From Escherichia coli (GTDB lineage Bacteria; Pseudomonadota; Gammaproteobacteria; Enterobacterales; Enterobacteriaceae): a stretch of DNA of 64,000 bases. A program made the translations under genes and the position numbers. This document shows, piece after piece, positions 50,958-56,440 of this stretch (its first letter is position 1; each line of letters starts with the position of its first letter). The notes beneath the pieces are model-generated. The model was not told the DNA's origin, made no database searches, and was given only the letters and a program-made list of their open reading frames with translations. The DNA lies in NCBI RefSeq assembly GCF_045037415.1, contig NZ_CP173438.1. One strand, 5' to 3'.

Positions 50958-50985
50958 AAAGGCCAGACTTCTCTGGCCCTGGTTA
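50958..50985 (-). terminator. Rho-independent terminator downstream of cysG
   Basis: ggccagag-aagt-ctggcc hairpin followed by a T-run on the minus strand. Confidence 0.6.
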
Positions 50986-50987
50986 AA

Positions 50988-52361
50988 TTAATGGTTAGAG
51001 AACCAGTTCAATTTATCGCGCAGGCCAACAACCCGACCAATAATAATTAGCGATGGACTGTTCATTTGCTGCGCCAGTTCGCCCAGCTGCGTGAGCGTAC
51101 CGTCAATCACGCGCTGCGTGACTGCCGTTCCGTTTTCGACAATTGCTACCGGCATTTCACCAGGCATACCGTATTCAATCAGCTTTTGCTGAATAGTTGC
51201 AGCCTGATTCAGCCCCATATAAAACACCAGCGTCTGTTTTTCTGCCGCCAGGTTTTCCCAGTCCAGCTCGCCACCGGTTTTTAAGTGTCCAGTAATTAAG
51301 CGTACGCTCTGGGCATAATCGCGATGCGTGAGCGGAATACCCGAATAGGCAGAGCAACCAGAGGCTGCGGTAATACCCGGAACCACCGAGAATGGAATAC
51401 CCGCGTTGCACAGTGTTTCCAGCTCTTCGCCACCACGGCCAAAAATAAACGGATCGCCGCCTTTCAGCCGCACCACGCGTTTGCCTTTTTGCGCTTCCCG
51501 CAGCAGGATCTGGTTAATCTCTTCCTGCGGTACGCAGTGGTATCCCGCGCGTTTGCCGACGAAAACGCGATCAGCATCGCGGCGTACCAGATTCATAATA
51601 TCGTCAGAAACCAGACGGTCGTAGACCACCACATCTGCCTGCTGAATTTGTTGCAGACCTTTCAGTGTCAGCAGCCCGGCATCGCCCGGACCTGCACCAA
51701 CCAGCACCACTTCACCGCGATGATCGAGCGGTTCATTGATTAACTGTTCGGTGGTTTCAGTAATGGCTTTCTGATCGTTGTTGGCCAGCGACTGCGCCAG
51801 GCGGTCATTAACGAACAATTTCTCCCAGAAACGGCGACGCTCACCCATCGTGGCGAACTGTTGTTTCACTCGCCCGCGTAATTGCCCGGCGTATTTCGCT
51901 ACCTGGCCCAGATGTAACGGCAGCAGTGATTCGAGTTTTTCGCGCAACAGGCGCGCCAGAACCGGAGAGGTGCCGCCAGAGGAAACCGCTACCATGAGCG
52001 GCGAGCGGTCAATAATCGACGGCATAATAAAGCTGGCGGCTTTCGGCGCATCGACCACGTTACAGAAGATGCGACGAGCTTCAGCGGCTTCGCTGACGCG
52101 CTGGTTAAGCGCGTCATCATCCGTCGCTGCAATCGCCAGCCAGCAGGTGTCGAGAAGGCTTTCATCAAATGGCCCTTCGACGAGGGTTAACATGCCTGCA
52201 TCTGCCCATGCGGTGAACTGTGGAATAAACGCTAATGCATTCACCGTTAAGCGAGCGCCTGCGTCTAACAGCAACCTTGCTTTGCGTTCCGCGACATCAC
52301 CACCGCCGACAATCAGACAGTCGCGATCGCGTAATTGGCAAAATATAGGCAAATGATCCAC
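50988..52361 (-). CDS. cysG: Siroheme synthase (uroporphyrinogen-III methyltransferase / dehydrogenase / ferrochelatase)
   Basis: 457 aa; N-terminal Rossmann plus C-terminal SUMT domain. Confidence 0.95.
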
Positions 52362-52379: not shown

Positions 52380-53186
52380 TTAACCGGCAGCCGTTTCAGT
52401 TTGATTAAATTTGTCCGCAACCGGACGATTCGCTTTCGGCGTAGCATACCAATAACCCAATCCCATGAATACGGCACCCGATAAAGTATTACCCAGCGTC
52501 ACCCACAGCAGGTTATGACCAATACCCGCCAGCGTGTAGGCTTCGCTGTGGTTGCCGAACCAGGAGAGGGCGAACAGCGTCATGTTAGCGATGGAGTGCT
52601 CGTAGCCGGACGCGATAAATGCCAGCAAACACCACCAGATAGCGATAAATTTCGCCGCCCCTTCAGTGCGCAGCGCCATCCAGATTGCCAGGCAAACCAG
52701 CCAGTTACACAATGCACCTTTGAAGAACAGTACCATTGCCGGTGCAGTGGTTTTAGCCAGCGCGACGGAGTGAACGATGCTGGTATCGACCGGCAGCAGG
52801 CTACCGCCACCCCAGCTATAGAGCATGGCAACAAAGACGGAACCGACCAGGTTACCCAGCCAGGTTTGCGGCAGGATTGCCCACATTTGCCCGTGGCTGA
52901 TAGTGCCCGCTTTCACTCCAAAGGTGAGGAACATGGTGTGTCCGGTGAACAGTTCAGAACCGGCGATAATCACCAGCGTTAAGGCGATACCAAAGGTCGC
53001 ACCCATCACCAGAGGACGTACGGACGGGTCGAGCAAATTACCGAGCGTGAAAATCAGGATGATCCCAAGACCCACATACGCGCCCGCCATGGCGGAGCTG
53101 ACCCAAAAGCCGAGCGGGTTATTTGCCGACAGGCGTGCAATGCGCGCAGCGTTAGCCGCACACTTAGTAATAGTGTCTGTAAACAT
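52380..53186 (-). CDS. nirC: Nitrite transporter NirC (FNT family)
   Basis: 268 aa formate/nitrite transporter fold. Confidence 0.94.
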   Translation of the reverse strand: MFTDTITKCAANAARIARLSANNPLGFWVSSAMAGAYVGLGIILIFTLGNLLDPSVRPLVMGATFGIALTLVIIAGSELFTGHTMFLTFGVKAGTISHGQMWAILPQTWLGNLVGSVFVAMLYSWGGGSLLPVDTSIVHSVALAKTTAPAMVLFFKGALCNWLVCLAIWMALRTEGAAKFIAIWWCLLAFIASGYEHSIANMTLFALSWFGNHSEAYTLAGIGHNLLWVTLGNTLSGAVFMGLGYWYATPKANRPVADKFNQTETAAG

Positions 53187-53312
53187 TTGATTATCCTTTA
53201 AAAAATAAAAACAAAAAATAAAACAAAAAGTTTAAAAAATGTCCTGCAATATACCGAAGGTTATTACAGGACCATGCAAAAAGGGGGAGGCATTGCGCCT
53301 CCCGTTAAAATA

Positions 53313-53639
53313 TTAACCGCGCAGCTGCACCACGCCGTCTTTCACTCGCGCGTCGTAATGCTTGACGGAAAACTGTTCGTCTTCCATGCACAAGCCGTCG
53401 CTTAAGCGAAAACGCTGCTTTTTCAGCGGGCTGGCGACCCACAGCTCGCCCTGGTGTTCCGCAATCAGCCCGCGTGACAGCACGCTGGACTCGAAGAACG
53501 GATCGATGTTGCTGATCGCAAACACCTGGTCGCTGTGATACGGGCGGAAAATTGCTACTTGTTCGTCACCTAACAGCGCGCAGACGCCGGTTTCAGGCAG
53601 GATGTCATCGATTTTGCAGATGTCTTTCCACTGGCTCAT
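53313..53639 (-). CDS. nirD: Nitrite reductase small subunit (Rieske-like)
   Basis: 108 aa; overlaps nirB stop by 4 bp. Confidence 0.94.
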   Translation of the reverse strand: MSQWKDICKIDDILPETGVCALLGDEQVAIFRPYHSDQVFAISNIDPFFESSVLSRGLIAEHQGELWVASPLKKQRFRLSDGLCMEDEQFSVKHYDARVKDGVVQLRG

Positions 53640-56179
53640 GCGTTGTCCTCCACCAGAGTTACCGGGATACGTTCATACGGCGTTGCCGGACGGTGCTGTT
53701 CGCGCTCTGGCACCATCTGCACGTTCGGGTCACGCTTGTCGCTGTTGATGAAGTGTTTGAAGCGAGTCTGCGCAGACGGGGTATTGACCGTTTCAGTCCA
53801 CTCACACACTACCGCTTCACGCAGGCGCGCCATCTCTTCTTCCAGATGTGCGTTCAGCCCCAGTTTGTCGTCAATGATCACCGCTTTCAGGTAATCGATG
53901 CCACCTTCGAGGTTTTCTAACCACGGCGCGGTACGCGTCAGTTTGTCGGCAGTACGGATGTAGAACATCATGAAGCGGTCAAGATATTTAATCAGCGTTT
54001 CGCGATCGATATCCGCTGCCAGCAGATCCGCATGACGCGGTTTCATGCCGCCGTTACCGCAAACATACAGGTTCCAGCCTTTTTCAGTGGCGATAATACC
54101 CACGTCTTTACCCTGAGCTTCTGAACATTCACGGGTACAGCCGGAGACACCGAACTTCATTTTGTGCGGCGTACGGATGCCTTTGTAGCGATTTTCCAGT
54201 TCCACGCCGAGGCCGACGCTGTCGCCAACGCCATAGCGGCACCAGGTGCTACCCACGCAGGTTTTCGCCATACGCAGTGCTTTCGCATAGGCATGACCGG
54301 TTTCGAAACCTGCTTCAATCAGCTGACGCCAGATCTCCGGCAGATCGTCTTTCTGTGCGCCAAACATCGCCAGGCGCTGGGAGCCGGTGATTTTGGTGTA
54401 GAGATTAAATTCACGCGCGATACGACCCACTGCCATCAGCCCTTCCGGGGTGATTTCACCACCCGGAGAACGCGGGATCACCGAGTAGGTGCCGTCTTTT
54501 TGGATGTTAGCGAGGAAGTTGTCGTTAGAATCCTGCAGCGGAGTATGTTCCGGCTTCAGAATGTATTCGTTCCAGCAGGAGGCCAGCAGCGAACCGACGG
54601 TCGGTTTACAAACTTCACAACCGTAACCTTTGCCGTGTTTCGCCAGCAGTTCTTCGAAGGTTTTAATGCCTTCAACGCGGATCAAATGGAACAGTTCCTG
54701 ACGCGAATAAGCAAAGTGTTCACACAGGTTGTTGTTAACTTCGATACCCTGTTTCGCCAGTTCCGCGTTCAGTACCTGAGTGACCAGCGGAATACAACCG
54801 CCGCAGCCCGTACCGGCTTTGGTTTCGGCTTTCAGCGCCGCAACGGTGTGGCAGCCTTTGTTGATAGCAGCAATCAGGTCGCCTTTGGTGACGTCGAAGC
54901 AGGAGCAGATTTGCGCGCTGTCCGGCAGTTTATCAACACCGATAGACGGCTTACCGCTACCCGAGTGCGCCGGCAGAATCAGAGAATCCGGGTTTTCCGG
55001 CAGTTCGATAGCGTTCAGCACCAGTTGCAGCAGGTTGCCGTAGTCGCTGGTATCGCCCACCAGTACCGCACCGAGCAGGGTTTTGTTGTCTTCGCTGACA
55101 ATCAGGCGTTTGTAGATCTCTTTGCTTTCGTCGAGGTAAACGTAGCTACGTGCGCCAGGCGTGCGACCGTGCGCATCACCAATACCGCCTACGTCTACGC
55201 CCAGCAGTTTCAGCTTGGCGCTAAGGTCTGCACCTTCAAAGGCGTTTTCGCTACCAAGAATATGGTCAACGGCGACCTGCGCCATTTTGTAGCCTGGTGC
55301 TACCAGACCAAATACACGGTTGTTCCAGCTTGCGCATTCACCGATGGCGTAGATATCCGGATCGGAAGTCTGGCAGGAATCATTTATGACGATACCCCCA
55401 CGCGGAGCAACGTCCAGACCACACTGGGTTGCCAGCTTATCGCGCGGACGGATACCGGTAGAGAAGACGATAAAGTCGACTTCCAGTTCGCTGCCGTCGG
55501 CAAAACGCATGGTTTTACGCGCTTCAACACCTTCCTGCACAATCTCAAGAGTGTTTTTGCTGGTGTGAACGCGCACGCCCATACTTTCGATTTTGCGACG
55601 CAGCTGCTCGCCGCCCATCTGATCAAGCTGTTCCGCCATCAGCATAGGGGCAAATTCGATAACGTGGGTTTCAATGCCTAAGTTTTTCAGCGCGCCAGCG
55701 GCTTCCAGACCTAACAGGCCGCCACCAACAACGGCACCGCGTTTGCTGCGACGGGCGCAGGATTCAATGGCGTTGAGGTCTTCAATAGTGCGATAGACAA
55801 AGCAGTCCTGAGTATCAGAACCTTTGATTGGCGGGATCCACGGGTAGGAACCGGTCGCCATGATCAGCTTGTCATAAAAAACGGTACGTCCGGCGCTGGA
55901 GTGAATCACCTTCTCCTGACGGTTGATGGTGATAGCGCGTTCGCCGACCAGAACTTTGATGCCGTGTTTCTCGTAGAAGCCTTCGCGCACCAGCGACAGC
56001 TCTTCGGCGGTGTGGTGAGAGAAGTAAGACGAGAGGTGTACGCGGTCATAAGCGATGCGCGGTTCTTCACAGAAAACGGTAATATCAAAGTTGGCCGCAT
56101 CAGATTTATCAAGAAGATCTTCGATAAAGCGATGGCCGACCATACCGTTACCGATAATTGCGAGTCTGACTTTGCTCAT
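53636..56179 (-). CDS. nirB: NADH-dependent nitrite reductase large subunit
   Basis: 847 aa; FAD/NAD Rossmann folds, Fe-S and siroheme-binding Cys motifs. Confidence 0.96.
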   Translation of the reverse strand: MSKVRLAIIGNGMVGHRFIEDLLDKSDAANFDITVFCEEPRIAYDRVHLSSYFSHHTAEELSLVREGFYEKHGIKVLVGERAITINRQEKVIHSSAGRTVFYDKLIMATGSYPWIPPIKGSDTQDCFVYRTIEDLNAIESCARRSKRGAVVGGGLLGLEAAGALKNLGIETHVIEFAPMLMAEQLDQMGGEQLRRKIESMGVRVHTSKNTLEIVQEGVEARKTMRFADGSELEVDFIVFSTGIRPRDKLATQCGLDVAPRGGIVINDSCQTSDPDIYAIGECASWNNRVFGLVAPGYKMAQVAVDHILGSENAFEGADLSAKLKLLGVDVGGIGDAHGRTPGARSYVYLDESKEIYKRLIVSEDNKTLLGAVLVGDTSDYGNLLQLVLNAIELPENPDSLILPAHSGSGKPSIGVDKLPDSAQICSCFDVTKGDLIAAINKGCHTVAALKAETKAGTGCGGCIPLVTQVLNAELAKQGIEVNNNLCEHFAYSRQELFHLIRVEGIKTFEELLAKHGKGYGCEVCKPTVGSLLASCWNEYILKPEHTPLQDSNDNFLANIQKDGTYSVIPRSPGGEITPEGLMAVGRIAREFNLYTKITGSQRLAMFGAQKDDLPEIWRQLIEAGFETGHAYAKALRMAKTCVGSTWCRYGVGDSVGLGVELENRYKGIRTPHKMKFGVSGCTRECSEAQGKDVGIIATEKGWNLYVCGNGGMKPRHADLLAADIDRETLIKYLDRFMMFYIRTADKLTRTAPWLENLEGGIDYLKAVIIDDKLGLNAHLEEEMARLREAVVCEWTETVNTPSAQTRFKHFINSDKRDPNVQMVPEREQHRPATPYERIPVTLVEDNA

Positions 56180-56251: not shown

Positions 56252-56440
56252 ATTCACCTTTATATACTCCTTAAGGGGTATATTGCTGATTTGTATAAAT
56301 TTTCTTAAGTCACGGAATTGTCTGATATTTCATGTTTGTGCAAAAAACAGACAAATTGAACGGGTTTATAGAAATAGATGCACGTAGCAGGGTAAGAGAG
56401 GAAAAGGCCGGACGACGATAGTGCCGCCCGGCATGAACAA

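Follow-up and report, generated by a model that had tools for sequence, protein, structure and literature searches.

The spacer between nirD and nirC of Escherichia coli is very probably a control region inside the nirBDC-cysG operon, which would work in the way described for its counterpart in Salmonella. We analysed it in a stretch of 64,000 nucleotides of E. coli DNA, referred to here as the window. According to the ORF coordinates, the gap between the two genes is exactly 53187-53312, i.e. 126 nt on the minus strand, as an earlier note on this DNA had stated. Read 5' to 3' on the minus strand, it consists of the nirD stop codon, 9 nt, hairpin 1, CC-U5, GCAUG, hairpin 2, A-U6, a U-rich tract, AAAGGAUAAUCAA and the AUG of nirC (Table 1). 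Judged by sequence, the window carries all three components of the published system, namely a terminator hairpin, a U-rich tract and a target site for the small RNA NarS. The element itself has been described before, in Salmonella, and NarS, its small RNA partner, is annotated in E. coli. Our additions are minor; they concern the breadth and the covariation of hairpin 1, an Escherichia-specific hairpin 2, an allele of a C run and a length polymorphism of hexamers. The present analysis establishes the anatomy of the spacer, its conservation and its complementarity to NarS.

Table 1. Features of the nirBDC-cysG operon and of the nirD-nirC spacer in the window, listed in the direction of transcription
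Feature	Position	Strand	Basis and remarks
nirB	53636-56179	minus	ORF list and RefSeq annotation of identical E. coli DNA
nirD (108 aa)	53313-53639	minus	ORF list and RefSeq annotation of identical or near-identical E. coli DNA; stop ends 9 nt before hairpin 1
Hairpin 1, stem-loop of the putative intra-operonic nirD terminator	53285-53303	minus	terminator scan, fold, conservation and Salmonella orthology
CC and UUUUU tail of hairpin 1	53278-53284	minus	sequence and Escherichia alignment
Hairpin 2, GUCCUGUAAUAACC-UUC-GGUAUAUUGCAGGAC	53241-53272	minus	folds; followed by A-UUUUUU
U-rich unstructured tract (76% T)	53198-53239	minus	composition, tandem repeat, no stable fold
NarS target site AAAGGAUAAUCAAA, from the nirC Shine-Dalgarno region through the first base of the AUG	53186-53199	minus	perfect complement of narS; published duplex
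nirC (268 aa, nitrite transporter)	52380-53186	minus	ORF list and RefSeq annotation
cysG	50988-52361	minus	ORF list and annotation

The 1,260 bases from nirD to nirC were 100% identical to several complete E. coli genomes and 95-99% identical to most of 5,425 others. The whole spacer folded at -35.6 kcal/mol (z = -4.5 against shuffled versions); its structure, which had been remarked on before, is well beyond chance. A search of Rfam 15 at a permissive E-value gave no match in the spacer that reached a gathering score. The top overlaps, sroE with 18.9 bits (gathering threshold 51) and IsrM with 16.7 bits (threshold 376), were both at chance level. The terminator scan also marked two terminator-like hairpins that border the operon on the minus strand. 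One, at 56407-56432, lies after tsgA and upstream of the nirB promoter region, and the other, at 50959-50980, begins 8 nt past the cysG stop codon and is likely the terminator of the whole operon.

Hairpin 1 reads GGGAGGC-GCAAU-GCCUCCC, with a stem of 7 bp (8 if a G-U pair is counted), six of which are G-C. Folded alone, it had an energy of -14.7 kcal/mol (z = -3.9), and none of 200 shuffled sequences folded equally well. The earlier note had written this hairpin as cgggaggcgc-aatg-cctccccc; the core is right, but the arms were drawn slightly out of register. The T run that was said to follow is present as UUUUU at 53282-53278, after CC. The tail, CCUUUUUG, has 5 U among its first 8 nt, offset by 2 nt from the stem, which satisfies the terminator rule of the scan, and hairpin 1 ranked second among 15 matches in the 6.5-kb operon region. 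Both hallmarks of an intrinsic terminator, a G+C-rich stem of about 5-14 bp and a U-rich tract 3' of the stem, are found in it. As a terminator it is predicted to be weak and leaky, because the U run is short and is separated from the stem by one C in K-12 or by two in the window. At this point the alignment shows CCCCC in the window (extending over 53283-53284), compared to CCCC in K-12 and other Escherichia, and the extra C shifts the U run further off the stem. The allele of the window should terminate more weakly than that of K-12. When 60 nt of the 3' end of nirD or the whole spacer was included in the folding, hairpin 1 was unchanged in both the minimum-energy and the centroid structures, and no alternative antiterminator fold was predicted. 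A regulated attenuator that alternates between terminator and antiterminator folds was rejected, as no structure sequestering an arm of hairpin 1 appeared. Since no competing fold was predicted, we regard hairpin 1 as a terminator with constitutive leakage and not as an attenuator responsive to a ligand or signal.

For a comparison across species, 79 nirD-nirC spacers were extracted from 80 NirC-encoding loci fetched from species-representative genomes. Their lengths ranged from 30 to 432 nt (155 nt in Possum strain A4). Hairpin 1 was found in 41 of the 79, representing 41 enterobacterial species and about 20 genera, among them Escherichia, Citrobacter, Salmonella, Klebsiella, Leclercia, Kosakonia, Phytobacter, Siccibacter and Chimaeribacter. 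In these 41 spacers the stem always started 3-10 nt past the nirD stop codon and was usually followed directly by a T run of 5-8; in genera other than Escherichia, 6-8 U stand immediately 3' of the stem. In the alignment of the 41 sequences, 89% of the cells were paired, compared to 50-68% when the 3' partners were slid. Compensatory changes altered both sides in 36 cells; 14 sequences, for instance, had G-C in place of A-U and 10 had C-G in place of G-C. The observed covariation score was reached by none of 500 shuffles. This pattern shows that the structure of hairpin 1 is maintained and not its sequence alone. The fact that some relatives manage without hairpin 1 counts against the terminator explanation: Serratia has a 30-nt spacer with no hairpin, and Cedecea and Buttiauxella have other palindromes with no U run. 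As a separate observation, the middle of the spacer in other genera (loci L009-L027, L053, L060, L063, L065, L067 and L069) contains REP/BIME-like, ERIC-like or CCCTCTCCC...GGGAGAGGG palindromic repeats, assigned to these types by eye only, in spacers of up to 432 nt. The inserted repeats always sit between hairpin 1 and the nirC Shine-Dalgarno sequence, a site that is a hot spot for the insertion of intergenic repeats.

The nirD-nirC region of the Salmonella enterica nirBDC-cysG operon was studied by Wang, Chao, Matera, Gao and Vogel (2020, NAR 48:2126; PMC7038943), who described a stem-loop (-14.90 kcal/mol) and a U track after nirD as an "intra-operonic terminator". Their northern blots displayed nirBD at 2.8 kb, nirC-cysG at 2.5 kb, a weak full-length RNA at 5.4 kb and, transcribed from a separate promoter, cysG at 1.4 kb. 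The 5' ends of nirC were monophosphorylated and lay within the U-rich region, and the full-length RNA built up upon inactivation of RNase E, indicating RNase E-dependent processing. Deletion of the hairpin together with the U track lowered nirBD, raised nirC-cysG and reduced the repression of nirC by NarS from about 30-fold to about 5-fold. The terminator limits read-through into nirC-cysG, stabilises nirBD and adjoins the RNase E processing sites (Wang et al. 2020). With S. enterica subsp. diarizonae (L031) as our comparator, the hairpin GGGAGGCGCAACGCCUCCC folded at -14.8 kcal/mol (-14.9 for the ensemble), compared to the published -14.90. Hairpin 1 of the window, GGGAGGCGCAAUGCCUCCC, differs from it by one base at the top of the stem or loop, where U takes the place of C, and its stem starts 9 nt past the nirD stop codon instead of 8 nt. 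Both species share the operon and the position within it, the hairpin, the U run, the U-rich leader and the NarS site at the nirC Shine-Dalgarno sequence. On the agreement in position, sequence and predicted structure, we regard hairpin 1 as the probable orthologue of the Salmonella nirD intra-operonic terminator. There are differences, however. In E. coli there are only 5 U, offset by 1-2 C, an extra 32-nt hairpin is inserted in the U-rich zone, and a longer U tract of repeated hexamers directly abuts the NarS site, which was reported about 200 nt downstream of the U track in S. Typhimurium (Wang et al. 2020).

Transcript data from K-12 are consistent with a block at this junction. Among the Rho termination regions in supplementary file 2 of Adams et al. 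(2021, PMC7815308) is MG1655 position 3,497,031 (+), with a Rho score of 3.95 (p = 6e-12); it lies inside nirC, 29 nt from the start of the gene. Their DirectRNA-seq at this position gave 586 reads in the upstream 800 nt and 24 downstream without bicyclomycin, and 920 upstream and 149 downstream with it. The reads drop 24-fold over the nirD-nirC junction, and 6-fold with Rho inhibited, a pattern consistent with a block or a decay boundary that is largely independent of Rho and to which Rho adds a part. This drop alone cannot separate termination from differential decay. It is conceivable, though we think it rather unlikely, that no real termination takes place and that hairpins 1 and 2 only block 3'-to-5' exonucleases after cleavage by RNase E, in which case the imbalance would come from differential decay, as with REP hairpins. 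The proximal U tract, with CC ahead of only 5 U, is poor, REP and other palindromes occupy the same spot in other genera, and nirBDC-cysG is in the operon list of a study of differential decay, where it is given by operon name only (Dar and Sorek 2018, PLoS Genet). However, genera with short spacers have the canonical form of a terminator, in which 6-8 U adjoin the stem, and the higher level of nirC-cysG RNA in the Salmonella deletion is expected from lost termination and not from lost upstream stabilisation (Wang et al. 2020). Differential decay is also partly compatible with the terminator model.

The listing as a Rho region might instead mean that the long untranslated spacer, together with a poorly translated nirC, loads Rho, that termination occurs inside nirC, and that the hairpins are incidental. 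We consider such Rho polarity unlikely as the main cause. Rho loading sites are not U-rich, C-poor sequence, and the tract before nirC is just that, U-rich and C-poor. Although the region scored significantly for Rho, the ratio of downstream to upstream reads was still 0.16 (149/920) with Rho inhibited, so that most of the drop is Rho-independent, and Rho polarity leaves the structural conservation of hairpin 1 unexplained. Neither the Term-seq tables of Adams et al. (2021), which have only the Rho region here, nor the SMRT-Cappable-seq supplementary tables, which have no nir entries, contain a 3' end in the spacer, and no direct E. coli 3'-end map, northern blot or reporter for the spacer was found in the published tables examined. 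The lack of 3' ends is weak evidence, because the cultures were aerobic in both cases and the operon is FNR-dependent and poorly expressed aerobically. The earlier note had read the spacer as an internal site of attenuation or processing by which nirC and cysG could be uncoupled from nirBD; this proposal gains support from the orthologous Salmonella element, which does so (Wang et al. 2020), and the K-12 read drop fits it. The level of cysG is additionally uncoupled from nirBD because nirC contains a cysG promoter, which Wang et al. (2020) demonstrated in Salmonella and for which they also cite E. coli. On the opposite strand, the list of Adams et al. (2021) has an antisense region of Rho termination at MG1655 3,496,855 (around 53334 in the window), just inside the 3' end of nirD, where 262 upstream reads compare with 12 downstream. 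A transcript antisense to the 5' part of nirC and to the spacer thus stops at the same nirD-nirC junction, and a promoter-like site inside nirC, TTGCCA-17-CACAAT at 52685-52713 (+), could be its origin.

The T-rich tract that had been noted before nirC is directly ahead of the nirC ribosome-binding site. It is the most T-rich segment of the window and the only 42-nt stretch there with at least 60% T on either strand. It forms no stable structure (-3.4 kcal/mol, z = -0.8). The tract is built of UUUUUG/UUUUUA hexamers as a tandem repeat with a period of 6/12, a property that the earlier note did not mention, and its length varies by 6-nt steps among E. coli strains: the matched length was 111 nt in about 5,360 records and 117, 123, 129, 135, 141 or 147 nt in about 67 records. 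A U-rich stretch and the GGAUAAUCAA motif ahead of the nirC AUG were kept in most genera. By analogy with Salmonella, the U tract is probably an entry or cleavage zone for RNase E and possibly a binding zone for Hfq or S1. Its extreme A+T richness might also suggest an element at the DNA level, either a promoter or UP element of nirC or a curved segment to which a nucleoid protein binds, which in our opinion is very improbable. No sigma-70-like site was detected in the spacer at the scan threshold, the 5' ends of nirC in Salmonella are monophosphorylated and thus processed rather than primary (Wang et al. 2020), and the constitutive-promoter list from genomic SELEX names only the cysG-yhfL spacer for this operon. 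The T runs recur every ~6 nt, whereas phasing for curvature would require 10-11 nt, and the curved-DNA reading was rejected on the grounds of this period.

The spacer of K-12 contains an ORF of 33 codons, MPPLFAWSCNNLRYIAGHFLNFLFYFLFLFFKG, running from an ATG in the loop of hairpin 1 to a TAA in the nirC Shine-Dalgarno region. It is probably the historical 'nirE' attributed to Harborne et al. (1992). If it encoded a small protein, the hairpin and the T tract would be mere by-products of its codons. This appears extremely improbable to us. The one extra C in the window shortens the frame to 9 codons; neither the 6-nt repeat expansions nor the wholly different spacers of other genera keep the frame, and the ATG at which it starts lies hidden in the hairpin and lacks a Shine-Dalgarno sequence. 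A small protein gene was rejected, as the frame is not conserved even among close relatives (33 codons in K-12 vs 9 in the window).

Hairpin 2 was absent from the earlier note, and it is the stronger of the two hairpins, with 14 bp and one bulge, -17.5 kcal/mol and z = -5.75. In the alignment it was confined to Escherichia, and the short spacers of Salmonella, Klebsiella and Huaxiibacter lacked it. Its position is within a block of about 49 nt that only Escherichia has, which interrupts an ancestral sequence between UUUUUGCAU and UUUUUUA. At the base of the stem, a change from G-C to A-U between the E. coli type and the E. albertii type keeps the pairing, and the top has diverged. Of 5426 E. 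coli genomes, 5425 had a match to hairpin 2 at a single place, and the 64-kb window had one match; hairpin 2 was rejected as a dispersed intergenic repeat (REP/BIME, ERIC) on account of this single copy. It might act as another weak terminator, or it might cap the 5' end of the nirC-cysG RNA after processing. Like the 6-nt length polymorphism of the U tract, it is a minor addition to a known element. One record titled E. coli strain SCPM-O-B-8794 (L003) had a hairpin 2 and a T tract of the E. albertii type, and all 5,425 complete E. coli genomes had the E. coli-type hairpin 2 at an identity of at least 90%. The record may represent a cryptic Escherichia clade or be mislabelled.

The NarS target site is another component that the earlier note did not contain. 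The sequence AAAGGAUAAUCAAA is a perfect 14-nt reverse complement of UUUGAUUAUCCUUU in E. coli narS (b4813, annotated in RefSeq), and it includes the Shine-Dalgarno sequence of nirC, AAGGA at 53198-53194. The site was identified by a direct match of 14-mers, and the full-length prediction of a duplex between NarS and the spacer gave a meaningless end-to-end duplex. The published duplex with the nirC Shine-Dalgarno region is likewise perfect over 14 bp, with a footprint from -12 to +1, and pairing of NarS with nirC was reported from E. coli RIL-seq as well (Wang et al. 2020). By its seed complementarity to the Shine-Dalgarno region, the nirC of the window would belong to the targets of NarS.

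Termination, RNase E processing and NarS dependence in E. coli are what we infer by orthology from the Salmonella experiments, and they could be combined as follows. RNA polymerase from the FNR-dependent nirB promoter would meet hairpin 1 and its short U run 9 nt past the nirD stop codon. Some polymerases would terminate there, and hairpin 1 would cap the nirBD RNA against 3' exonucleases. The RNA from read-through would have a long, ribosome-free, U-rich leader, in which RNase E would cut and thereby free a nirC-cysG RNA. NarS, which is Hfq-dependent and derives from the narK 3' UTR, would then pair at the nirC ribosome-binding site and shut off nirC alone. The net outcome would be much nirBD and little nirC, with nirC separately adjustable. 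A terminating ribosome would cover the 5' arm of hairpin 1, because the gap between stop codon and stem is only 3-10 nt, and this could couple read-through to the translation of nirD. If that is true, the extent of read-through would vary with how tightly translation and transcription are coupled.

Intrinsic terminators that lie within operons and leak are a general class, discussed also by Wang et al. (2020), that sets gene dosage. They too have a G+C-rich stem-loop and a U run between cistrons, and the distal genes need the read-through. The nirD element is unusual compared to this class in that, in Salmonella, it is coupled to RNase E processing and required for small RNA control of the next cistron. 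Wang et al. (2020) named glmUS as a parallel, in which RNase E processing precedes the action of the small RNA GlmZ. As in nirBDC-cysG, a polycistronic mRNA is cut by RNase E between cistrons and the distal fragment is then the target of a small RNA. However, GlmZ activates whereas NarS represses, and the cut in glmUS falls on the stop codon, where that paper mentions no terminator hairpin. The REP/BIME and ERIC stabilisers of mRNA are likewise stable extragenic hairpins just past a stop codon, and REP-like or ERIC-like copies occupy the same spacer in Citrobacter, Klebsiella oxytoca and Pseudescherichia, but hairpins 1 and 2 of E. coli are single-copy and do not resemble these copies.

It is perhaps tempting to see more in the Escherichia form. 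The ancestral terminator and U tract might have been rebuilt there as a tuning module, in which a weakened terminator, a hairpin 2 that terminates in tandem or caps the RNA freed by RNase E, and a slippage-prone (UUUUUR)n set strain-specific levels of NirC and sensitivity to NarS, and a terminating ribosome masks the stem. We regard this as doubtful. The extra features of Escherichia, i.e. hairpin 2, the C-run allele and the length of the hexamer repeat, would at most refine the known mechanism. NirC imports nitrite, which is toxic, and NirBD removes it; a low and separately repressible nirC was suggested to protect the cytoplasm during nitrate respiration in the gut (Wang et al. 2020). As E. 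coli has the same control region, the Salmonella model would be transferable to it.
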